Shown: positions 48 through 21,900, counted from the stretch's first letter. The stretch is DNA of 64,000 nt from Rhizophagus irregularis (GCF_026210795.1 NC_089435.1:2418001-2482000); one strand, 5' to 3'. The notes: generated by a model from the sequence alone, not told the origin. Translations and numbers: made by a program.

Positions 48-83
48 ATAGATGGGTAAAAGAGTTACTTTTCAAAAATAAAA

Positions 84-323
84 ATGGAACAAGTGGTAAG
101 AAATACAAATCATAAAATAAAGGATATAATCGAAAATTTAGAAGGTATAACAAAGGAATTAAACAGGATAAATTATAACTATAAATTCAAAGCCAAAAAT
201 TTTGAAGATAGTGAAGAAAGACCATTAATATTGGAAACTCAAGGGGAAATATTACAAATAGAGGTGATATTAAGTAAAGTAAACAAGCTAAAATTATCAG
301 AATTATGTAAAAATGGGACCTAA
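84..323 (+). CDS. Small 79-aa ORF between RNase H and the kinase-integrase ORF, function unknown
   Basis: ORF track. Same frame as RNase H but separated from it by two stops (45-47, 57-59); overlaps the next ATG by 11 nt; looks helical/coiled-coil. Confidence 0.35.
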   Translation: MEQVVRNTNHKIKDIIENLEGITKELNRINYNYKFKAKNFEDSEERPLILETQGEILQIEVILSKVNKLKLSELCKNGT

Positions 324-2094
324 AATAATAATCATATGTGGAGTTGATGGTACTGGAAAAACATTCATTGTAAATAAACTTATAAAAGAATTTGAAAAAG
401 TAGGACAAAGTGTGAGGTTTAACACCTTTAAAAGGAAAAGAGAGGACAATGATAAGTATAAATTACCAAAGAAAGGTATAGAATGGGAATTCAGGAAGGA
501 AGTTGTTGAACAAATCAACAGGAGAATGGAAGAACATGATAATGAGGATTGGTTAATATTAGATAAAAGTCCCTATAGTGAGTACTTTTATCAACAAACA
601 CCATCATTCGACAGAGGATACATAACAAGATATGAGAACCACCTATTAGAAAAGGAAGTATTTAGGAACAAAAGGATAATTGATGAATCAATAGTGATAT
701 TTTTAGAAAATGAAAAATGTTGGGAAAATTACAAAGGTAGAGAATATTCGAAAAAGGATCAAGGACATAAAACATCATATCCATTATTAGATGAAGAAAG
801 ATATATGGAGATGGTGAAATCATTTAAAGAATGTCAAGATATTTACAAAGGAGAAAAATATGCTAATATTAAAATATCAAATAATGACACAGATTGGGAA
901 AGAGTATATAATAAAATAATAGAATTAGATGGAGATAAACCACCAATAGAGGTTAAAAATGTTGAGATTAAGGATAACATCAGGGTAACTGATGGTAAAA
1001 AGCATATTGAGAAAAATGGTAAAAACATCAGAATAATAGAAGATTTTGAAAAGATGGGAGCACTATATTTAGCTCACAGTCATGAATTATCGGCACATAT
1101 GGGAATCAAAAGTACTTATGATAATTTAAAAGATAAATATTATTGGGAAAATATGCTGAATGACGTTGAAAGATATGTAAGGACATGTGATGAATGTCAA
1201 AGAAGAGGAAAACCACAAGGGAAAAATGAATTACACCCAATTAAAGTAGTAGAACCATGGTATCAAATCGGGATTGACTTTGTTGGACCATTGAACACAA
1301 CAACAAATGGTAATAAATACATCATAGTTGCAATGGATTATTTTACAAAATGGCCAGAAGCCAAAGCAGTAAAAGAAGCAACTGCCAAAGAAGTATCAAA
1401 ATTTATTTATGAAGACATCATTTGTAGACATGGATGTCCAATGAAAATATTGAGTGATAGAGGAAGTCATTTCAATAATGAAATGATTAAGGAATTAATG
1501 GAAAAATTTAAAATTAAATGGAATTTTTCTACAAGTTATCATCCAGAGACAAACGGACTTGTTGAAAGATTCAACCGAACATTAGGTCAAGCATTAGCAA
1601 AATTATCAACCAAAGATGATTGGGATCAAAGGATAGCACCCATATTATTTGCTTACCGAAATAAAAAGCATAGTTCAACGAGAATTCGACCATTTTATTT
1701 AACATACGGAAGAAATGTACGGACAATAATGGATGAAAATATCAAAGAAATTAACCTAAACGATAGAATAGTTGGATTATTAGAAGAACTACCAAAAATC
1801 CGACATGAAGCCAAAGAACAAATACTGAAATCTCAAACAAAACAAAAAGAGTATCATGACAGAAAAATAAGCAAAGAACACACCTTTGGAATTGGAGATA
1901 AAATACTACTCTATGATAAAGCCAAAGCACAACAACTATCGGGAAAATTAGAATCAAAATGGTTGGGACCATTTTACATTCATGAAATACTACCGAATGG
2001 AGCTTATAGAATTAAAAATATTAAAGGTGTCATCAAGAAGATACCTGTAAATGGAGAATTATTAAAGACTTACCATACACCGATGAGTAAATGA
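313..2094 (+). CDS. Fusion protein: thymidylate/deoxynucleoside-monophosphate-kinase-like P-loop domain + Ty3/Gypsy integrase
   Basis: N-terminal IIIICGVDGTGKT (Walker A) and WLILDKSPYSEYFYQ (resembles the TMPK DR-x-x-x-S-x-x-x-YQ motif). C-terminal HHCC zinc finger (AHSHELSAH...CDEC), DDE core (IGIDFVG, ILSDRGSHF, NGLVERFNRTL) and KWLGPF (GPY/F). No chromodomain. Confidence 0.9.
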   Translation: MGPKIIIICGVDGTGKTFIVNKLIKEFEKVGQSVRFNTFKRKREDNDKYKLPKKGIEWEFRKEVVEQINRRMEEHDNEDWLILDKSPYSEYFYQQTPSFDRGYITRYENHLLEKEVFRNKRIIDESIVIFLENEKCWENYKGREYSKKDQGHKTSYPLLDEERYMEMVKSFKECQDIYKGEKYANIKISNNDTDWERVYNKIIELDGDKPPIEVKNVEIKDNIRVTDGKKHIEKNGKNIRIIEDFEKMGALYLAHSHELSAHMGIKSTYDNLKDKYYWENMLNDVERYVRTCDECQRRGKPQGKNELHPIKVVEPWYQIGIDFVGPLNTTTNGNKYIIVAMDYFTKWPEAKAVKEATAKEVSKFIYEDIICRHGCPMKILSDRGSHFNNEMIKELMEKFKIKWNFSTSYHPETNGLVERFNRTLGQALAKLSTKDDWDQRIAPILFAYRNKKHSSTRIRPFYLTYGRNVRTIMDENIKEINLNDRIVGLLEELPKIRHEAKEQILKSQTKQKEYHDRKISKEHTFGIGDKILLYDKAKAQQLSGKLESKWLGPFYIHEILPNGAYRIKNIKGVIKKIPVNGELLKTYHTPMSK

Positions 2095-2419: not shown

Positions 2420-2431
2420 GTGGGGGATAGT
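2420..2431 (+). other. Polypurine tract (PPT)
   Basis: GTGGGGGATAGT lies immediately before the LTR's TGTAA. Confidence 0.75.
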
Positions 2432-3052
2432 TGTAATGCCGTAGTATACCTAGTAAATTTATTAATTGTGAGGCGCAGTATTACATTTAGTCTTAGTGTA
2501 TAAAATTTTAACTTATTTTTATTTTTATTTTAATTGGACCGAGAAGTCGTTAAACTAATAATCACATGGATCAAGGTAATTGGTCCGTGATGACCTTAAA
2601 CTATTAGTCACGAGATTTAAGGATAAATGAAGATCCGAAAGATACTAAATTGAATGAAATCAAGTGATCTGAGGTGTCAAGTGATTAATTTGTTGATCAC
2701 TACGTTAATATTATAAATCATAATTCAGGAGTTCATGATGATCAAATGGATACAAAATTAAGATAATGGAAATACTTTAAAACAATGGAAATACTTTAAT
2801 AATTTAAATCCATGAATCGAAATTATGAATTTAGTTACACAAAAACAAACATAAAAGGGCGTGAAGATCACCTTTTGGAAAGGACAGAGAGAGAGAGAGA
2901 AAATTGGACGAATTTTGTTATGAATTATTTATTTTATTATTTAATGTTATTAAACCAAGCATATTATTGTATTTATTTATATTATTAATAAAGAGTCATT
3001 TTGTTAATACCTGAGGTGGCAAACATAATTTTCTATGGGCTCAGGTGTTACA
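2432..3052 (+). repeat. 3' LTR (621 bp)
   Basis: Begins TGTAATGCC and ends GGTGTTACA (imperfect inverted termini). Contains a TATA-like CATAAAAG at ~2850 and AATAAA at ~2987. Confidence 0.8.
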
Positions 3053-3443: not shown

Positions 3444-4009
3444 TAGTGCTCCGCACGAGCCAGTCCAGCTCGAGCCGGCTCGCGAGCTAGGTATATCGAG
3501 CTGAGCTGAGCCGCGGCTCGTAATAAATTTGGCTCGGCTCATTCAAGCCGAGCTTTGATACAGCTCATTCGAGCTGGCTCGCGAGTTATGAGCTGGCTCG
3601 CGAGCTCCAGAACTTTTTTCTTTATTATTGCCGGCGTCACGTGATTTTTAATTTTGGCCGGAATTAAGTGATCGACATAGAAATTTCCTTTTTTGGAATC
3701 CTGTGCAACGTATTTCCCCATTTTTGATAAGAAATAAAATTGCCTTTTTTGGATTGTGTAACGTTACTCAGGTGTTCAAAAAAGGAAATTTCCGTGTCGA
3801 TTACTTAATTCCGGCCAAAATTAAAAAAATTACGAGAAATATGCAGAATTTGATAAAAGCTTGGCTCGGCTCGAGCCAAGCCACCTTAAAACTCGGCTCG
3901 GCTCGGCTCGAGGTTGGCTCGACATGAGCCAAGCTCGAAAATTCTAATCGAGCCGAGCCGGCTCGAATTTTGGCTCAGCTCGGCTCGAGCCGGCTCGTGC
4001 GGAGCTTTA
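3444..4009. mobile_element. hAT-type MITE (566 bp)
   Basis: TIRs TAGTGCTCCGCACGAGCC / GGCTCGTGCGGAGCTTTA. Perfect 8-bp TSD CATACAAT at 3436-3443 and 4010-4017. Many subterminal GAGCC/GGCTC motifs. Confidence 0.9.
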
Positions 4010-7227: not shown

Positions 7228-8731
7228 TTATTCTATAATTTGAAATATTTCATATTCTTCCACAGAAAATAAACCAGAAAGTTTAGTAGATTCTCTAATT
7301 TTTTTTTCGTAAGCCACCTTACAGCATTTACCACCGTATCCATAAAGAACAAGATCGATACCAAATGATGGACCAAAGCCATAATTATTATACGTAGCAT
7401 GTCCTTCATTTTCCACGCGACTTAAAATATAATTTTGCAAGTCGTCCCTATTCTTAAAAGAGAATATAAAACTATCTTTAGTAGTGGCATAAGAACCATC
7501 AGATTTCCATTCAATTGGATTATATCCACCAAAAATTTCTTCACTATGTTTCACTTTAATTATTGTCACAGTGCGAGATTGATTATCACAGATTTCATAA
7601 AATTTTTTAGTTGCAAATCCATCCCGAGTTCCACGAAGTAACAATTTGAAGTTGTACGTATTTTTTATCTCATCCGAATTTTCTAATCTATCGATCCATT
7701 TTGAGATTAATTCAGTATGTTGAATTGTAATGATATTAGAATCAATATTAATTTTCTAGTAGTAATACGAGGTTTTGATTTTTTACTTGATTGGATACTG
7801 GGCTTCAAAAAATATTTTAATAAATCTTTATATAACTCTTTTGGTAAAATTTTTTTATAGGGTAACACTTTGTCTGAAAATTCTTTAGAAGTTAAATTAT
7901 AGAATCTAATATGTGGAACGCAATGTTGTAAACTATTTTTCAAAGCATTAAAATCTTCTTTTGAAAAGTTTGTAGGATCAGAAGGAAGTTCTGGATTTTG
8001 TGCAAGTCCCCATCCAAGTACATCTTCCCATATTTGAATTTCATTCATTTGAAGAATATCACTTTGAATAAGTGAAACTAAAAGTTTTTCCGAAATTGAA
8101 GAAAAATTTGGAGATTTAAATATCTTAACTGGTTCTTTCGACGTTAAATCAGTACAAAATTTTTGAAGTTCCAAGAAAGAATCGTTCTCAAAACTTGTTT
8201 TATATATCAAATCAAAATTTTGTTCCATCCAATTTGCCTTATTTTCAACCAAAAAGGATTGTAAATAAGTGATTAATTCTTGGAGACCAAGTTCACTTCC
8301 AGCAACTAAGATTTTAATTATATCCGAAGTATCATATTCCTCTGAAGAAATTTTTCCACCATAAATATATCTAAAATAAAAAGTGTAAATTTTTTAAATT
8401 TTTTTTTTAAAAAAATACTTTATTATATAAAATCATTTTTGTAATTAAAATTCAATTATTTTCTTAATTCTTACCTTAATATTATTTGAAAAATTTTAGG
8501 TAAAATATTTGGTAATTTTATATGTACCAAAGTTCCATCATGTTTCTTTTTATTGGTTGACAAAATTCTTCTTAAACAATTAGAACGATAATGTAAGATA
8601 ACCATGTGAGCACGAAATATTTTTATATAAGGGTCTCCACCAACTTCAATAGTAACATCATAATATTCTTCATCATTTAAAATATCAAGTAAATTTTGTG
8701 ACAATTTCGTTAAAAAATTATTATTATTCAT
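7228..8731 (-). CDS. BTB/POZ-BACK-TLDc domain protein, 2 exons, with one apparent frameshift
   Basis: Exon 1 is 8731-8475 (DVTIEVG...FRAHMVIL), followed by a GT-AG intron 8474-8371. Exon 2 starts at 8370 (YIYGG...). TLDc motifs LLLRGTRDGF, GGYNP, GPSFG. One base is missing in an A-run near 7752-7755 between BACK and TLDc. Confidence 0.85.
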
Positions 8732-9148
8732 GATTTAATAAAATTTAAAAAAGAAATTGAAAAGGATAAGGATTAGCAATTTTTTTGAATTGTTAGCCTT
8801 ATATAATTGCTGCTGCAACTTGTTGATCTGAAACAAACGTACAGGATAGTTTGTGTTACTCAAGGAAATACCAAAAATATATGAGTATCTCAATATAATT
8901 TTATTCTTTCCATTAAGATAAAAAATTTCAAATAAATATCTTTTGCCAAAGTTTTATCATCCATAACAAATATTATTATTCAGTCGATTATGATTTTAAT
9001 GGCCGATATTTTTATGAACATCCAATATTGAAATAGTTATTAGTAGAATTAATTTCTATTGGTCACCGCAGTATTCCTAATGACCGAACTATAACTCAGT
9101 TATTGGATAGAGGATATCAATCGTAGACCGATATCTCTTTTCCCTCAT

Positions 9149-10294: not shown

Positions 10295-13200
10295 GTTAAA
10301 ACTATTTAGTATTACATTGTTGGCATTTACAGGTAATCATTACAATTATTATATAAATGCTTGCATCCACTATATAATTCAACTCCATTTTTAAAACCAC
10401 TTTGTAAATTTATGCTGCTTATTGAAGCAAACAAAAGGGTTTAACTGAATTCTTATCTATTTCTTTCTTATCTATATATATATTAGCCAAAATATCCATT
10501 GCACGCTCATCACCATTTTCTGCTGCTTCTTGATACCAATAAAAGGCTACTTCAAAATCCCTTCTTGTTCCTTTTCCATCATAATAACAATTGGCTAAAT
10601 TAAACATTGCATCTTTAAACCCATTTTCCGCTGCTTTTTGATACCAATAAAAGGCCTTTTCTAAATTTTTTTCTACTTCTTTTCCAATCCTATATTTATT
10701 AGCTAAATTAAACATTGTTTCTTTAACACCATTTTTTACTTCTATTTTATACAAAATGAAGGCATTTCTTAAATTCTTTTCTGTATCTTCTCTACTATAA
10801 TACCAATTGGCTAAATTATTCATTGCTTCTTTAATACCATTTTCTGCTGCTTTTTTGTACAAATGAAAGACTTCTTCTAAATTCTTTTCTGTCTTTTCTT
10901 CATTTTCATAACATATGGTTTGTTGCATTTTGATACAAACAAAAGGTTTTTTCTAAATTTTTTTCTGTTCCTTCTTCATTATAAAACATACTCATTGCTT
11001 TAATATGATCTTTTTCTGCTGCTTTTTGATACCAATAGAAGGCTTTTTCTAAATTCTTTTCTATTCCTTTTCCATTTTTATAAAATATGGCTAAATTATT
11101 CATTGCTATAATATGATCTTTTTCTGCTGCTTTTTGATACCAAAAAAAGGCTTTTTTTAAATTCATTTCTGTTCCTTTTCCATTTTCATAACTATTGGCT
11201 AATTCATTCATTGCATATTCAAACCCATTTTCCGCTGCTTTTTGATACCAATAAAAGGCTTTTTCTAAATTCTTTTTTGTTCCTTCTCCAATTTCATAAA
11301 ATATGGCTAATTTGTATATTGCAACTTCATGACCATTTTCCGCTGCTTTTTGATACCAATAAAAGGCTTTTTCTAAATTCTCTTTTGTTCCATGTCCAAT
11401 TTCATAAAATATTGCTAAATTAAACATTGCATCAGTAAACCCATTTTCTGCTGCTTTTTGATACCAATAAAAGGCTTTTTCTAAATTCTCTTTTGTTCCA
11501 TGTCCAATTTCATAAAATATTGCTAAATTAAACATTGCATCAGTAAACCCATTTTCTGCTGCTTTTTGATACCAATAAAAGGCTTTTTCTAAATTCTTTT
11601 CTATTCCTTTTCCATTTTTATAAAATATGGCTAAATTGTTCATTGCTTTAATATGATCTTTTTTTGCTGCTTTTTGATACCAAAAAAAGGCCTTTTCTAA
11701 ATTCTTTTCTGTTTTTTCTCCATTTTCATAACATATGGCTAAATTATTCATTGCATCGGTGAAATCATTTTCTGCTGCTTTTTGATACCAATAAAAGGCT
11801 TTATCTAAATTTTTTTCTGTTCCTTCTCCATTATAATACATACTGGCTAGATTAAACATTGCTTTAATATGATCTTTTTCTGCCGCATTTTGATACCAAT
11901 AAAAGGCTTTTTCTGAATTCTTTTCTGTTACTTTTCCATTTTCATAACTATTAGCTAAATTATACATTGCTTCTTTAACACCATTTTCTGCTGCTTTTTG
12001 ATACCAATAAAGGGCTTTTTCTAAATTATTTTCTGTTCCTTCTCCATTATAATACATACTGGCTAGATTAAACATTGCTTTAATATAATCTTTTTCCGCT
12101 GTTTTTTGATGCCAATAAAAGGCTTTTTCTAAATTCTTTTCCATTTCTCCTCCATTTTCATAGCATATTGCTAAATTAAACATCGCTTTAATATGATCTT
12201 CTTCTGCTGCTTTTTGAAACCAGTAAAAGGCTTTTTCTAAATTCTTTTCTGTTTCTTTTCCATTTTTATAACTATTGGCTAAATTAAACATTGCTTTGAT
12301 ATGATCATTTTCTGCTGCTTTTTGATACCAATAAAAGGCTTTTTCTAAATTCTTTTCTGTTCCTTTTCCATTTTCATAACATATAGCTAAATTAAACATT
12401 GCATATTTATCACTGTTTTCTGCTGCTTTTTGATACCAATAAAAGCTTTTTCTAAATTATTTTCTGTTCCTTTTCCTTTTTCATAACAAATGGCTAAACT
12501 ATTCATTGCCTCTTTGACACCATTTTCTGTTGCTTTTTGATACAATTGAAAGGCTTTTTTTGAATTCTTTTCTGTTTCTTTCAGATTTCTATAGCATATG
12601 GTTAAATTAAGCATTGCATCTTTATTGCCATTTTCTACTGCTTTTTGAAACCAATAGAGGGCTTTTTCTAAATTCTTTTCTGTTCCTTCTCCATTTATAT
12701 AACATATGGCTAAACTATTCATTGACTCTTTATCACCACTTTCTGCTGCTTTTTGATACCAATAAAAGGCTTTTTCTAAATTAATTTCTGTTCCTTTTCC
12801 ATTCCTATATTTATTGGCCAAATTAAACATTGCTTCTTTAACACCATTTTCTACTGCTTTTTGATACAAAATAAAGGCTTTTTTTAAATTCTTTTCTGTT
12901 CCTTCTCCATTATAATATCTATTGGCTAAATTATTCATTGCTTCTTTAATACCATTTTCTGCTGCTTTTTGATACAAATGAAAGGCTTTTTTTAAATTCT
13001 TTTCTGTTCCTTTTCCATTATAATACCAACTAGCTAAGTTGAACATTGCTTCTTTAACACCATTTTCTGCTGCTTTTTGATAACAATAAAAGGCTTGTTC
13101 TAAATCTTTTTTTGTTCCTTCTTCATTTTCATAACATATGGCTAAATTAAACATTGCTTCTTTAACACCATTTTCTGCTGCTTTTTGATACAAATGAAAG

Positions 13201-14179
13201 GCTTTTTCTAAATTAATTTCTGTTCCTTTTCCATTTTTATAACATATGGCTAAATTAAATATAGCTTCTTTAATACCATTTTCCGCTGCTTTTTGATACA
13301 AATGAAAGGCTTTTTCTAAATTCTTTTCTATTCCCTCTCCATTATAATACCTATTGGCTAAATTAAACATTGCTTCTTTAACACAATTTTCTGCTGCTTT
13401 TTGATACCAATAAAAGGCTTTCCTAAATCCTTTTCCATCCCTTTTCCATTTTCATAACATATAGCTAAATTAAACATTGCTTCCTTAACACCATTTTCTG
13501 CTTCTTTTTGATACCAATAAAAGGCTTTTTTCAAATTTTTTATTGTTCCTTCTCCATTTCTATAACATATGGCTAAATTAAACATTGCATCTTCATTACC
13601 GTTTTCTGCTGCTTTTTGATACCAATGAAAAACTTTTTCTAAATTCCTTTTTGTACCTTTTCCATTTTCATAACATATGGCTAAATTAAACATTGCTTTA
13701 ATATGATTTTTTTCTGCTGCTTTTTGAAACCAATGAAAGGCTTTTTCTAAATTCTTTTCTGTTCCTTCTCCATTATAATAGCATATGGCCAATTTATTCA
13801 TTGCTTTTTCATAACCATTTTCTGCTGCTTTTTGATACCAGTGAAAAGCTTTTTCTAAATTCTTTTCTGTTCCTTCTCCATTGTAATACCTTTTGGCTAG
13901 ATTAAACATTGCTTCAATATGATTTTTTTCTGCTGCATTTTGATATAAATAAAATGCTTTTTCTAAATTCTTTTTTGCTCCTTCCTCATCTCTATATTTA
14001 TTGGCTAAATTAAACATTGCTACTTTATCACCATTTTCGGTTAATTTTTCCAAAGAACTAATACATTCTTTACACCATAATTCTTCAATAAAAGGTTTAT
14101 TACAATATAAACAATTTTCGTTGTTTATTGTATCAGTATCTTTGTTTGAGATATTTAAATTACTCAAATTAGTTTCCAT
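10295..14179 (-). pseudogene. Zn-ribbon + ~34 Sel1-like repeat gene, frameshifted, kinase domain lost
   Basis: Four consecutive ORFs in different frames form one array of 36-aa AMFNLA..Y..G.G...NLEKAFYWYQKAAE repeats. The N-terminus METNLSNLNIS...CLYCNK...WCKEC is paralogous to 18911 and 27825. A decayed linker relic (TGCCAACAATGTAATACTAAA on -) lies at ~10295-10405. Confidence 0.85.
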
Positions 14180-16699
14180 TTAGTTATTTTAGAAATTTAT
14201 TTTACCTAAAAAAATTTATTATTTTTTTTTTTGGATAAGTTTTTTTTTTATTCGGTACTGTCATTGAATGGGTTACTAAAAAGGAATATTTTAACCAAAA
14301 GTCGATGTTAGGATTTTTTTTTCGGGCCATATTTTTTCCGGTGCACTGATCTGCGTTGAGTTATGTACTAAAAAAAATTTAGTTTAATTTTTTTAAAAGT
14401 TTAAGATTATAAGTAACAATTTTATTAGCATTTTCTCAAATAAAATTTGGATAAATGAGTATTAATTTAATATTTTCACAAATAAAACTTTTAAAATATT
14501 TATAAGTGTACAGAAATCATTATTTTTAAATTAATTATTTCGCTTTGATTTCTGGTTATTATGTGATGATTCAATAGTAATTTTCTTCATTCTTGGAAAT
14601 TTGACGTTACATAAAATAATAAATGATTATTATAAATTAAAATCATGTTATACACATATAGCATTAAAAAAAAAAAAATTTAAGGACATCATATACTTAA
14701 AATTTAATAATGGCTAAATATATAAAAACTTTTTAAAAATAAAGGTGTTGAAAATATATAAAAACTAATTAAAAATAAATGTAAAATATATAATAACTTT
14801 TTAAAAATAAAATGTTAAAAAATCAATAGGAAATTATTATAAACTTCAAGTTCAGAACAAACAAATTCTAATTTCTCATACCGGTCCATGCGCCATCACT
14901 GTAATTCTAATTTTGTATTATATATTATTTGATTTTCATTTATAAGTATGTTTCATTATTTCTTGTCTAACATTAATAAAGAAATGCGTTGCAATTTAAA
15001 AAAAGAAGAGTCGATTATTATTTTCGGGATATATTTTTTCCGATGCATTGATCTGCACTATTGATTAATCGATGAGATTTCTAATTTTAGTTAAAACATA
15101 CTTTTCAGTAACTCATTATAGATTTGTTCCGGACATCACAATTCATGTTTGTTGATTTGAAGGGTGCAGATCTTACTAAAAAATTTTTATTTTTTTATCG
15201 GTAATAATTTTTATTTTATTTTAATGGTTTAGAAGCTTCTGACTTAAAAAAAAATTTTAAGATTGATCAAAAAAAAAAATCGATCACATGATTTTAAATC
15301 AAGTCAATAAAATACATAAAATATTTGCAATCGATGAATGGGGACTCAAAATTTTGGAACAATATATCAGACAATAGTTACGCTTTTTCTACTTAGTAAG
15401 AAACAAATATACTTTCACGTTGGAAAGAATAAAACATGAGCCAATTAATTTAAATATCAGCTTCGAATTAGCCTGTTTCGATAACGTAAAAATAAAGATC
15501 ATTTAATAATAGTTAGTCACAATTCACAAATCACAATACAATACTTTCAATCATTATTGACTGAATTAAAATACACTGGTCATATGTAGAGTTAAATTAA
15601 ATAATGATTTGACATCATCCTGATTTTCGTAATTATGATGCCTAAAACATAAGTTATTTACACTTCGATTTTATGGAAACTACTTAGACTAGTTATTTTA
15701 ACTGAAAAGGCACAAAATATAATATTTAGTATAGTACTTTCGCATTTTCTAAAGAATCTAGAGATATTTTGATAAACAAGAGATCAATCTTTTTGCTGAA
15801 ATTTATCAGACGCTTTCATTTAATTATAGAGACATTTAGATCTACAACTTTTAGACGAAATTCATATCTATGATGATTGATGAAAAATGAATTATTAAGA
15901 TTATTTATTAATAATAATGCAGATTTTATTTCACTTTTTATTCTATTTGATTATAAATATCAAATAAACTTTATTTCATGAAATAATCAATGCTTTTAAA
16001 TCTTAAATTCTTTTCTTGTCGTAATGATAATTGAGCAAATTGATTAAATTATTCAACTGGGTTATCGGAATAATTAGATTAATTGAAATTAAATAGTATC
16101 CGTATTGGTGAATATCATAAATATGGTATTAGTTAAAAAAAACTGCTACTATCCAAAACCTATATTTATTATCTTTTAATTGGACATTTTGTTTTACATT
16201 TTGTAAATACATGAACCTTTACAATAATTCGTCATTTCGTTAAAAATGTTTTATAATGATATTTTTAAAATTACTTATTTTCTTTATTTATTCGAATAAA
16301 AATTTTGTAATTTAATTATCATGTACCTTATCTTCCTTTTTATTGTTTATTAAAATTCATTCGCAAAGACAAAGATGATGTGAAAAATTTTTACATTCGA
16401 TTGAAATTTGATAATTTTGGAAAAAACTAAACAAGTTTATTATGGTAATGATGAATTTGATAAGTTTTAGATTCGAGAGTTGAGTGAACTTTAAATAAGA
16501 AACACTTTGAAATTCTTTAAAATGATAATTTTAAAATTTTTGATTATAATATCATTATTATTGTAGAATTACACATTTATCAACTGTTCACTCTATTATC
16601 CGCACTTAACATATATGGTGCGGAAGAAAATAATCAAATTCATATCCCGCCCATGCATCATTATTGTGAAGCATGAACTATAATTGTTAATACGTTACA

Positions 16700-18515: not shown

Positions 18516-18910
18516 ACGAATGGATGAACGATTCCTGATCTTCCCGATAAACATCCGTGAATATTAAATTCACTCACATCTCCTTCCCTTTTTACTTTTA
18601 AATTTTTTTTTCTTAAAAAAAAAAATTTTTCTTTAAACTTAATATTTCTCATCCATTACCCTTTTTTAAAAAATATATTATTTTGTTTTTTTTTAACTAC
18701 CCGCTATCTCCTTTTTTTTTAAAAAAAAAAACGTATTTGATTTTTTCTCGAAGCTTTTTCTTTTAAAAAACTTCTTTATATTCACCATTTTATTTTATTT
18801 TTTATTTTGTAGACCCACGTCTACTTTTGGTTAAATTATTCTCTTTTAATAACTTTATTCATTAAATATTAAAAAAAATTTGTTTTTTTTCAAGTAAAAT
18901 AAATAACCAA

Positions 18911-21900
18911 ATGGAAGCCAAAATTAGTGAATTAAATATTTCAGATAAAGATACTGATACAGTAAACATCATAAATTGTTCGTATTGCAATAAAACTTTT
19001 ACTGAAGAATTATATTGCAAAGAATGTATTAATTCTTTTGAAAAATTAGCAAAAAATGGTGATATTAAAGCAATGCTTAATTTAGCCATATGTTATAGAA
19101 ATGGAGATAAAACAGAAAATAATTTAGAAAAAGCCTTTTATTGGTATCAAAAAGCAGCAGAAAATGATGATAAAGAAGCAATGTTTTATTTAGCCAATAC
19201 ATATAGAAATGGAGAAGGGACAGAAAGGAATTTAGAAAAAGCCTTTTATTGGTATCAAAAAGCAGCAGAAAATGGTGTAAAAGCAGCAATGTTTTATTTA
19301 GCCAGGTGCTACAATTATGGAGTTGGAACAGATAGGAATTTAGTAAAATCCTTTAATTGGTATCAAAAAGCAGAAGAAAATGGTGTTAAAGAGGCAATGT
19401 ATTATTTAGCCTTATGTTATGGAAATGGAGAAGGGACACAAAAACATTTAATAAAAGCCTTTAATGGGTATCAAAAAGCAGCAGAAGATGGTGTTAAAGA
19501 AGCAATGTATTATTTAGCCACATGTTATAGAAAAGGAGAAGGGACACAAAAGAATTTAGAAAAAGCCTTTTATTGGTATCAAAAAGCAGCAGAAAATGGT
19601 GTTAAAGTGGCAATGTGTAGTTTAGCCATATGCTATGAAAATGGAGAAGGAACAGAAAAGAATTTAAAAAAGGCCTTTTATTGGTATCAAATAGCGGCAG
19701 AAAATGGATATGCAAATGCAATGTTTAATTTAGCCAATTCATATAGAAATGGAGATGGAACAGTAAAGAATTTAGAAAAAGCCTTATATTGGTATCAAAA
19801 ATCAGCTGAAAATGGTAATGAATTAGCAATGCTTAATTTACTTACTTATTATCATGAATATGGAGTAAAAACAGAAGGGGATTTAGAAAAATCTTTTAAT
19901 TTGATTCAAAATGCAGCAGAAAATGGTAATGAAGAAGCAATGTTTGATTTAGCCATATGTTATGAAAATGGAAAAGGAATAGACAAGAATTTAGTAAAAG
20001 CCTTTCATTGGTATCAAAAATTAGCAGAAAAAGGTAATAATGCGAATGCAATGTTTAATTTAGCCATATGTTATGAAAATGGAAAAGGAATAGAAAAGAA
20101 TTTAAAAGAAGCCTTTCATTGGTATCAAAAATCAGCAGAAAAAGAAGATGGTAATGTGGATGCAATGTTTAATTTAGCCAACTATTATCATGAAAATGGA
20201 TTAGGAATAGATAGGGATTTAGAAAAAGCCTTTGATTGGTGTCAAAAAGCAGCAAAAAGAGGTCATAAACAAGCAATGTTTAATTTAGCCACATGTTATG
20301 AAAATGGAGAAGGAACAAAAAAGGATTTAAAAGAAGCCTTTGATTGGTACCAAAAAGCAGTAAAAGATGATGATAAACAAGCAATGTTTAAATTAGCCGC
20401 ATGTTATGAAAATGGAGAAGGAACAGAAAAGGATTTAGAAAAAGCCTTTTATTGGTGTCATAAAGTAATAGAAACTATTAATGAAGAAGCAATGTTTTAT
20501 TTAGCCAATGAAAATGGAGAAGGAACAGAAAAGGATTTAAAAAAAGCCTTTTATTGGTGTCATAAAGCAACAGAAACTGTTAATGAAGAAGCAATGCATT
20601 ATTTAGCCAATAAATATAGAAATGGTGAAGGAACAGAAAAGAATTTAGAAAAAGCCTTTTATTGGTATCAAAAAGCAGCAGAAAATGGTAATACAAAAGC
20701 AATGAATGATTTAGCCATATGTTATAGAAATGGAATAGGGATAGAAAAGGATTTAGAAAAAGGCTTTTATTGGTATCAAAAAGCAGCAGAAAATGGTAAT
20801 ACAAAAGCAATGAATGATTTAGCCATATGTTATAGAAATGGAGTAGGAATAGAAAAGGATTTAGAAAAAGGCTTTTATTGGTATCAAAAAGCAGCAGAAA
20901 ATGGTTTAACTGATTCAATGCATAATTTAGCCATGTGTTATGAAGATGGAGAAGGAACAGAAAAGGATTCGGAAAATGCCTTTCATTGGTATCAAAAAGC
21001 AGCAGAAAATGATAATGAATTAGCAATGTATAATTTAGCCATACATTATGAATATGGAGTAGGAACAGAAATGAATCCAGAAAAAGCCTTTCAATGGTAT
21101 CAAAAAGCAGCAGAAAATGGTCATGAAGTTGCAATGTTCAAATTAGCTATATATTATGAAAATGGAATAGCAATAGAAAAAAAATTAGAAAAAGCCTTTT
21201 ATTGGCATCAAAAAGCAACTGAAAGTAACAAAGTAAATTTTAAAAATGAAGTTGAATTATGCAATGAATGTGAACAACATATTGATTACCAGTGGTGCCA
21301 ACAATGTAATGCTAAACGATTTCAACAAGGTTTTTCAAAGTGGACTAGTAATAATAAATTTATTGATAAATTTATTCAAGAAGCACAACTTAATGCCAAA
21401 AGCAGTTATGAATTTTTGGAGTGGATACCTTATAATAAATTGTTAAGCATTAATTATTATGATAAAGGAGGATTTAGTGAAATTCATAAAGCTATCTGGT
21501 CAGATGGGCCTGTCTTTAGTTGGAATTTTGATAAACAGCAGTGGAATAGACAAACAAATCATGAGGTTATTCTTAAAATGCTTAATAATTCATCAGATGA
21601 ATTAGATGAATTTCTGAATGAGGTATAGTATTTATATTTAATGGTAAATTTTATTTTCCTTTGCAATAATTTAATAATTTTTTTTATAATATTGATTATA
21701 TAGTGGAAGTATCATTATAATTGTCAGAAAAAATCATTTTCAAAATTTGTTCAATTCTTTGGAATTACCCAAGATCCAAATACTTCAAAATATATGATAG
21801 TAATGAGTTATGCAAAAAAAGGAAGTTTTAGAAAATGTTTATATGATATAATTAAATTTAAGTGGCAAGACAAGTTACAATTATTGAAAAAAATTATATT

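Follow-up and report, generated by a model that had tools for sequence, protein, structure and literature searches.

The 64,000-nucleotide stretch of the Rhizophagus irregularis genome analysed here (GCF_026210795.1, NC_089435.1:2418001-2482000; referred to as the window) begins with the 3' half of a multicopy Ty3/Gypsy long terminal repeat (LTR) retrotransposon of Rhizophagus, in which the integrase is fused in frame to a domain predicted to adopt the fold of the thymidylate kinase (TMPK)/deoxynucleoside kinase (dNK) superfamily. This domain is under purifying selection and is present in several species. On balance, we lean towards the view that it is an ATP-dependent deoxynucleoside-monophosphate (dNMP) kinase that feeds reverse transcription.

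The original prediction, made from the sequence of this DNA, was that a retroelement lineage has captured a nucleotide kinase that shares one uninterrupted frame with an intact HHCC-DDE-GPF integrase. All the motifs that it quoted are found in the stop-free open reading frame (ORF) of 593 amino acids (aa) at 313-2094 (Table 1), with LILDKSPYSEYFYQ at aa 81-94 and IVIFL at aa 127-131, and so is the intact integrase. Shuffling aa 1-205 20,000 times produced the P-loop word GxDGxGK[ST] once; it is present in 84 of the 97 readable loops of the kinase family, and, compared with the longer form [ED]GxDGxGK[ST], the loop of the window copy begins with C. Across 32 kinase rows D12, G15, K16, R61, K85, P87, Y88, Y93, Y140, R143, Y164, M167, F171 and Y178 are invariant and K40, R43, R71 and E90 nearly so, the residues at catalytic positions remaining unchanged with identity falling to approximately 26-35%. 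The available text of 10.1101/466938 describes the P-loop, the DR motif and the LID of TMPKs as conserved, and the DR motif as a highly conserved catalytic element.

At the position of the DR motif the family departs from TMPKs, in which the arginine is invariant (14 of 14 rows): among the 103 of 130 family proteins with a readable motif, 101 have DK, one has EK, one has NK and none has DR. Because DK is fixed across the family, the arginine-to-lysine change, which had been pointed out as a possible alteration of catalysis, is to judge from the alignments a family signature and a lineage trait rather than damage or decay. The place of the strand-2 EP glutamate, the catalytic base of dNKs, holds the basic stretch N-T-F-K-R (NTFKRR) in the kinase family; dNK rows have EP in six of seven cases and EE in one, EP being found also in the dNK P0126 and in Drosophila dNK. 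The roles considered here for individual residues follow those known from TMPK and dNK catalysis.

AlphaFold2 modelled aa 1-205 from an 11-row alignment with a predicted local distance difference test score (pLDDT) of 87.3 and a predicted template modelling score (pTM) of 0.83; the model of the full-length fusion had a pLDDT of 49.6 and was not used. In VIA-align comparisons the model matched (i) Giardia deoxyadenosine kinase (dAK; 8puu, Z 15.1, root-mean-square deviation (rmsd) 3.1, 187 residues aligned), human deoxyguanosine kinase (dGK; Z 15.0) and further dNKs (Z 14.3 and 13.9), (ii) T. thermophilus TMPK (5x7j, Z 13.7, rmsd 3.2, 178 residues aligned) and another bacterial TMPK (Z 13.6), and (iii) NadR (Z 13.1). 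Foldseek likewise gave dAK and TMPK as top matches, and its viral matches come from the same TMPK/dNK families. Profile comparison by hhalign gave E 3.6e-16 against a 14-row TMPK alignment over aa 3-98, with the P-loop and the DR/YQ motif in register, and E 7.5e-11 against a 7-row dNK alignment over aa 5-204, nearly the whole domain. A sequence search of solved structures returned P-loop-level matches led by FtsY, which we set aside as P-loop noise because the fold search indicates nucleoside-monophosphate (NMP) kinases. As had been proposed, the domain is thus predicted to fold as an enzyme of the NMP-kinase type.

The family resembles kinases of the TMPK/dNK fold but should not be filed as either. 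With TMPKs (PF02223, TIGR00041, PHROG 761) it shares the fold, GxDGxGK[ST] and S-x3-YQ; unlike them, it has DK rather than DR and no EP/FP after strand 2, its profile alignment covers the N-terminal half, and it lies below the curated cut-offs. On the N-terminal 206 aa Thymidylate_kin (PF02223) reaches E 2e-4 and 21.5 bits, under its cut-off of 27, AAA_28 reaches E 4.4e-6 and 27.4 bits (cut-off 27), and TIGR00041 scores 25.1 bits on the family protein P0042 against a cut-off of 83.25. PHROG 761, labelled 'thymidylate kinase', matches at E 2.8e-12 over aa 3-194 and is matched by 14 of 14 family rows. With dNKs (PF01712; Giardia dAK, human dGK and deoxycytidine kinase (dCK), Drosophila dNK) the family shares the fold, a LID arginine and DKS-x2-S-E, which resembles [DE]RS-x3-D; it differs from them in having no EP glutamate, in its TMPK-type P-loop and in its single LID arginine. 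The places of the dNK [DE]RS motif and RxR LID hold DKS and one invariant arginine. Since the family falls outside both classes, thymidine monophosphate is no more than a candidate substrate. The invariant DK motif marks a new branch of the TMPK/dNK superfamily.

Two protein searches yielded 31 and 44 family proteins, the named ones from R. irregularis and R. clarus, and 130 of the 166 proteins collected belong to the kinase family. R. diaphanus also carries the kinase (RGB21387.1, P0131), with an in-frame kinase-integrase junction, and 18 metagenome loci (L001-L018) carry it at 52-60% identity. The named relatives with 97-98% identity are R. irregularis proteins. The cluster containing the window copy has 47 members, in which a locus could be counted twice where one strain is represented by two assemblies; among the 15 members listed, nine are 593 aa long and lie on nine contigs of different length, their kinase parts being 3-7 residues off the window copy. 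A collapsed contig of sequencing run X15 runs without a gap over 1-1354, differing from the window at 11 letters, and so places the junction in further copies. By the Nei-Gojobori method, with pairs that are not independent and values that are rough for distant pairs, the ratio of nonsynonymous to synonymous substitution rates (dN/dS) of the kinase has a median of 0.14 and a maximum of 0.33 (60 of 171 pairs with dS 0.02-1.5; L014 has one internal stop), the closest pairs giving 0.05-0.18; the values are 0.22 for the integrase (51 of 66 pairs) and 0.16 for RNase H (6 of 10 pairs). The domain is therefore neither restricted to one copy nor evolving neutrally, and the claim that a retroelement lineage holds a domain of the nucleotide-kinase type stands. 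Kinase and integrase distances are correlated (rho 0.61, p 0.0002, 15 elements) and their GC contents at third positions are similar (0.23 and 0.21, respectively), which argues that the capture is old and that the module has been inherited with the element. In the kinase tree the window lineage is unresolved, long branches meet and the tree is unrooted, and therefore we claim no order of events from it.

Phosphorylation of dNMPs is the function that we favor slightly because the ATP site is intact, basic residues are conserved, the nucleoside-activating glutamate is absent and the partners of the domain are enzymes of nucleotide metabolism or reverse transcription; the Nudix partner of distant family members, a second nucleotide-pool enzyme, is counted in its favor. 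In this model, (i) translation of the ORF from the element RNA would depend on stop-restart reinitiation, (ii) fusion to reverse transcriptase (RT)-RNase H in most lineages, or to integrase in the window lineage, would ensure co-expression and packaging near reverse transcription, (iii) ATP-Mg would be bound by D12, K16 and T17 of the P-loop and R143 of the LID, (iv) the acceptor would already bear a phosphate, as suggested by the basic residues K40 and R43 (near-invariant) and R61 and K85 (invariant) together with the missing dNK glutamate, its base, as E90 suggests, not necessarily being thymine, and (v) the phosphorylation of dNMPs would provide more deoxynucleoside diphosphates and triphosphates (dNTPs) for reverse transcription, host nucleoside-diphosphate kinase completing the last step.

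Several points weigh against this proposal. The lysine in 101 of 103 DR-position motifs may weaken or change catalysis, the TMPK cut-offs of Pfam and NCBIfam are not reached and the TMPK profile aligns over aa 3-98 only. In the fold comparison the first two places go to nucleoside rather than nucleotide kinases, and Z values of 15.1 and 13.7 are no basis for deciding on the acceptor; the fold list also holds NadR/NRK, NDUFA10-like and polyphosphate kinases. Moreover, dS saturates in an A/T-rich genome, which makes the dN/dS of distant pairs rough, kinase activity is a prediction, and it is an assumption that dNTP supply limits these elements.

Alternatively, the kinase could act on a non-canonical or chain-terminating nucleotide, or its Nudix partner could remove one, and in this way protect reverse transcription by pool sanitising or counter-defence. 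Distant relatives with a DK-type kinase are fused to an intact Nudix domain (PF00293, E 3e-9 and 4e-11); these proteins (P0042, P0091, P0095, P0155, P0156), known from metagenome proteins alone and including one cluster of 71 metagenome members, are spread over three or more divergent kinase-tree branches (P0042, P0095 and P0091/155/156). The family-wide DK, PY and KRRR signatures are unlike those of canonical enzymes, and the available text of PMC12210691 reports Nudix subfamilies C/F (Nudix with dNK, Diversisporales) and K (Nudix with retrotransposon domains, Glomerales) in Glomeromycota. The hosts are the same fungi, and Nudix is joined there either to a nucleotide kinase fold or to domains of retroelements; the likeness to the kinase family is by description only. 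Against such a role, every locus with a known retroelement context is without Nudix, and the N-terminal extension of sister lineages (the linker), considered as a Nudix remnant, was not supported as such (E 0.14). We regard a sanitising enzyme as unlikely.

We consider it improbable that the domain is a salvage kinase adding the first phosphate to deoxynucleosides. The four dNKs noted above head the fold matches, the dNK profile match spans the full length, and DKSPYSE is in register with the phage dNK sequence DRSIYED; the replacement of the EP glutamate by N-T-F-K-R and a P-loop of the TMPK type GxDG, not EGNIG, argue against it. Equally improbable to us is a catalytically silent module that binds nucleotides or nucleic acids, as a scaffold or sensor for the element enzymes, or else a 5'-hydroxyl polynucleotide kinase. 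The change from DR to DK and the basic KRRR patch would fit either, NDUFA10-like subunits occupy ranks 12 and 25 of the fold matches, and PHROG 505, a polynucleotide kinase, is matched weakly by 2 of 14 family rows. Nevertheless, none of the 32 rows departs from the P-loop Asp and Lys or the LID Arg, a constancy that would go beyond the usual need of binding alone.

The placement of the kinase bears on a further idea of the original prediction, namely that the domain senses nucleotides for, or targets, the integrase. Among the 44 proteins, RT/RNase H families are found in 33, integrase families in nine (one has both), Nudix in one and neither in two. Within the 18 metagenome loci the kinase closes the RT-RNase H frame in four (L002, L006, L009, L010), forms its own ORF behind a stop in six (L008, L011, L014, L016, L017, L018) and has a cut or unclear 5' side in eight. 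None of the 11 loci holding both kinase and integrase fuses the two in frame: a stop separates kinase from integrase, and RNase H from integrase, in 11 of 11. A true in-frame junction was observed in two cases only, the window subfamily and R. diaphanus P0131. The database models of other lineages in which kinase and integrase are joined (P0009/68, P0021, P0037/73, P0038) are without the last kinase helix, which is kept by the cluster-mates P0067/P0069, and they look for this reason like predicted-intron joins bridging two ORFs. The predicted fusion thus recurs, being fixed in one subfamily in two species, but it is not the defining architecture: the partner varies, and what stays constant is the location of the kinase between RNase H and integrase. 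The variable partner argues against a targeting or regulatory domain of integrase, which we judge very unlikely; it is paralleled by the varying placement of the dUTPase of fungal Gypsy elements. Finally, a neutral passenger or assembly artefact, to which the private changes K42, L51 and K179 of the window copy relative to multi-copy contigs might point, is already refuted by the low dN/dS, the size of the family and its recovery from independent runs and species.

In L001-L018, and at 45-323 in the window, the Gypsy pol is split into separate protease (PR), RT-RNase H, kinase and integrase ORFs with overlapping or adjoining stop and start codons. At 13 of 16 kinase stops the next ATG lies within -20 to +5 nucleotides (nt) (TAATG, ATGA and similar), compared with 0 of 1600 control positions. 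The AUG-n5-UAA spacing of the window junction is listed for coupled termination-reinitiation in the available text of PMC5972666, where fungal viruses and SART1, a non-LTR element, are mentioned by name. This arrangement suggests polycistronic stop-restart translation in an LTR element; the ORFs would be coupled, splicing being the alternative. No spliced joint was seen in the RNA runs, and in the polyA runs X20, X21, X22 and X23 depth on the kinase was 0-1.7 and the reads obtained were mostly divergent LTR reads; the presence of the organism in these runs is not established and they provide no evidence either way. Split coupled ORFs explain how gene predictors mis-join these elements through false introns.

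Small ORFs accompany the kinase. The 79-aa ORF of the window is homologous to 81-aa ORFs located 3' of the kinase in L010 and L003 (hhalign score 36.8 versus a maximum of 17.5 in 100 shuffles) and has no Pfam family below E 0.05; contigs of run X5 skip it at a 9-nt repeat (window 78-308) and perhaps represent a subfamily without it. A conserved ORF of 47-52 aa lies between kinase and integrase in five loci (L001:863-1012, L002:2254-2412, L004:679-831, L006:977-1120, L015:634-780), and its L002 copy matched no Pfam family. One element lineage has an F-box ORF (PF00646, E 2e-5) in this place (L012:670-1089, L014:945-1127).

A donor of the kinase was not found. HMMER searches of 1.84 billion representatives gave 64 matches, 44 of them at E <=1e-10 (one, P0096, a repeat artefact), and no donor; beyond the family the first match has E 2.5e-5, and these outside matches are either TMPK/dNK-like proteins or FtsY. 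No viral contig matched the family profiles A1 or P0091, looser profiles giving 42 and 16 weak loci, prokaryote genomes gave at least 30 weak loci and no donor, and the best phage matches had E 0.1-0.6. When 95 weak viral and prokaryote loci were rescored with the family profile, none exceeded 28 bits and none carried retroelement genes. The closest local motif to DKSPYSEYFY is DR-x3-SE-x2-Y in uncharacterised phage and large-DNA-virus TMPK-like kinases (L074, L093, L102); all readable viral motifs are DR, and none of these kinases can be named as donor. SPbeta YorR is a fold match, as is the baculovirus kinase-dUTPase fusion O10287 at rank 19. The Atlas clusters nearest by features (score 0.95-0.96) consist of TMPK-like or AAA_28 proteins from viruses, archaea and bacteria and serve as leads only.

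The assignment of the element to Ty3/Gypsy rests on its relatives and its layout. The integrase (last 350 aa of the ORF) has the Ty3 polyprotein 7q5b as its best solved relative (E 1.5e-30), foamy virus coming next (2e-18), and the RT of the sister element L009 matches Ty3 4ol8 at E 2e-110 in a search of solved structures. The order PR, RT-RNase H-kinase, integrase in L009, and the RNase H end before integrase in the window, is that of Ty3/Gypsy (Metaviridae). The HHCC finger (H255-x6-H262, C292-x2-C295), D-D(35)-E, GPY/F, polypurine tract and TG...CA 3' LTR typical of the group are present, the frame closing 39 aa after GPF; a Pfam scan of the ORF matched no chromodomain in the C-terminal part of the integrase. 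A single pol polyprotein, which is usual in Ty3/Gypsy and not strictly defining, is absent, as stops separate PR, RT-RNase H and integrase in L009. The 5' half of the element falls outside the window, on its upstream side. The NADALSRII-type ending recurs in the RT-RNase H proteins P0003-P0027 and is followed by a stop in L011 and L016. The linker behind the kinase occupies the position of the Met-initiated first helix in free-standing integrases and may be of derived origin. Polypurine tracts similar to that of the window precede TGTA/TGT in L007, L009, L013 and L015, sequencing runs show a depth step and loose ends at 2430-2432, at the 3' LTR start, and no second LTR copy lies within the window.

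Table 1. Coordinates of the element features in the window
Feature	Position	Strand	Details and basis
RT-RNase H frame, last codons	3..47	+	ends NADALSRII; stop at 45-47
Small accessory ORF, 79 aa	84..323	+	stop overlaps kinase start as AUG-n5-UAA
Kinase-integrase fusion ORF, 593 aa	313..2094	+	single stop-free frame
Predicted nucleotide-kinase-fold domain (TMPK/dNK superfamily), aa 1-205	313..927	+	AlphaFold2 model and VIA-align
TMPK-type P-loop GVDGTGKT, G10-T17	340..363	+	D12, G15, K16 invariant in 32/32 rows
DKSPYSEYFYQ, counterpart of TMPK DR-x3-S-x3-YQ and dNK [DE]RS	562..594	+	K85, P87, Y88, Y93 invariant
LID-position motif Y140-x-x-R143-E144	730..744	+	Y140, R143 invariant; aligns to RxRxR LID of dNK P0126
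Short linker, last kinase helix to integrase N-terminal extension	928..975	+	alignment
Integrase HHCC zinc finger	1063..1209	+	PF17921 (Integrase_H2C2), E 1.5e-17
Integrase catalytic core D322, D382-x35-E418	1264..1566	+	PF00665 (rve), E 9.2e-11
GPF (GPY/F) motif of integrase C-terminal domain, aa 552-554	1966..1974	+	sequence
Polypurine tract	2420..2430	+	sequence
3' LTR, TGTAA...TTACA	2432..3052	+	sequence ends

Other features of the window were noted in passing. The word GAGGCGCAG near the LTR start (approximately 2460-2476) is common to the L007 and L009 LTRs, which otherwise do not align. A stretch of the 3' untranslated region (approximately 2327-2385) holds words that we take to resemble tRNA A-boxes and B-boxes, and an 18-nt piece of it is found twice in L009:4241-4310; ARAGORN and Rfam gave no match for this tRNA-like stretch. 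A GC-rich segment at 3445-4008 is likely a non-autonomous DNA transposon: it has terminal inverted repeats and internal palindromes and is flanked on each side by a 9-nt direct repeat. At 7228-8734 (-), 10300-14200 (-) and 18900-21230 (+) we recognized by eye pieces of BTB-BACK-TLDc-like genes and long arrays of 108-nt (36-aa) Sel1-like repeats; expanded families of these types are ordinary in Rhizophagus.

A retroelement with a captured nucleotide enzyme is a kind already known, and the kinase as the captured enzyme is apparently new. Ty3/Gypsy elements with a dUTPase (Postia PosPlaTy3, rotifer Juno/Vesta/TelKA, planarian Burro) and retroviruses have likewise taken a nucleotide enzyme into pol. 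In the available text of PMC2864245, PMC5408684 and PMC6431247 the dUTPase sits at varying pol positions and is assumed to aid replication in non-dividing cells; in fungal Gypsy elements it is located at one or the other Pol end or else separates PR from RT (PMC2864245). The Rhizophagus element differs in carrying an anabolic P-loop kinase, in its place between RNase H and integrase and in the division of pol into coupled ORFs. The word 'kinase' is absent from the available text of these three papers and of PMC3248453; the accessible portion of PMC12210691 describes no kinase within a retrotransposon, PF02223 occurring 0 times in the supplements searched; 'thymid' occurs 0 times in what is available of the Rhizophagus transposable element (TE) papers PMC11075540 and PMC8647823, and a term search of the available text of PMC10799480 and PMC12440569 gave nothing. 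No description of a nucleotide kinase in an LTR element was thus found in the literature searched, with subscription journals, Repbase, GyDB, Dfam, Figure S1 of PMC3248453 and TE libraries outside the search; automatic JGI labels already name some RNase H-fused members 'thymidylate kinase'. Based on these findings, the kinase-bearing Gypsy element is real, under selection and apparently undescribed.

More tentatively, and with reservations, we suggest that these elements may constitute an undescribed Gypsy clade of mycorrhizal fungi organised like a small virus, with a polycistronic stop-restart RNA and a shuffling accessory cassette between RNase H and integrase (DK-subfamily kinase, small coiled ORFs, F-box, an ancestral Nudix partner). 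The kinase would then be without precedent among enzymes encoded by retroelements in building up, or chemically selecting, its own supply of dNTPs, and it might act on a non-canonical nucleotide in counter-defence. Reverse transcription needs a supply of dNTPs, and dUTPase, the nucleotide enzyme of LTR elements listed in the available text of the sources, only removes a harmful nucleotide. If dNMP phosphorylation is indeed the function, this would be a retrotransposon that, in the manner of large DNA viruses, invests in the supply of nucleotides, and it would do so in a coenocytic symbiont whose spores stay dormant for long periods. Because the kinase domain is small, predicted to be soluble and directly assayable, it makes accessible to experiment the question of whether transposition in these fungi is limited by dNTP pools.

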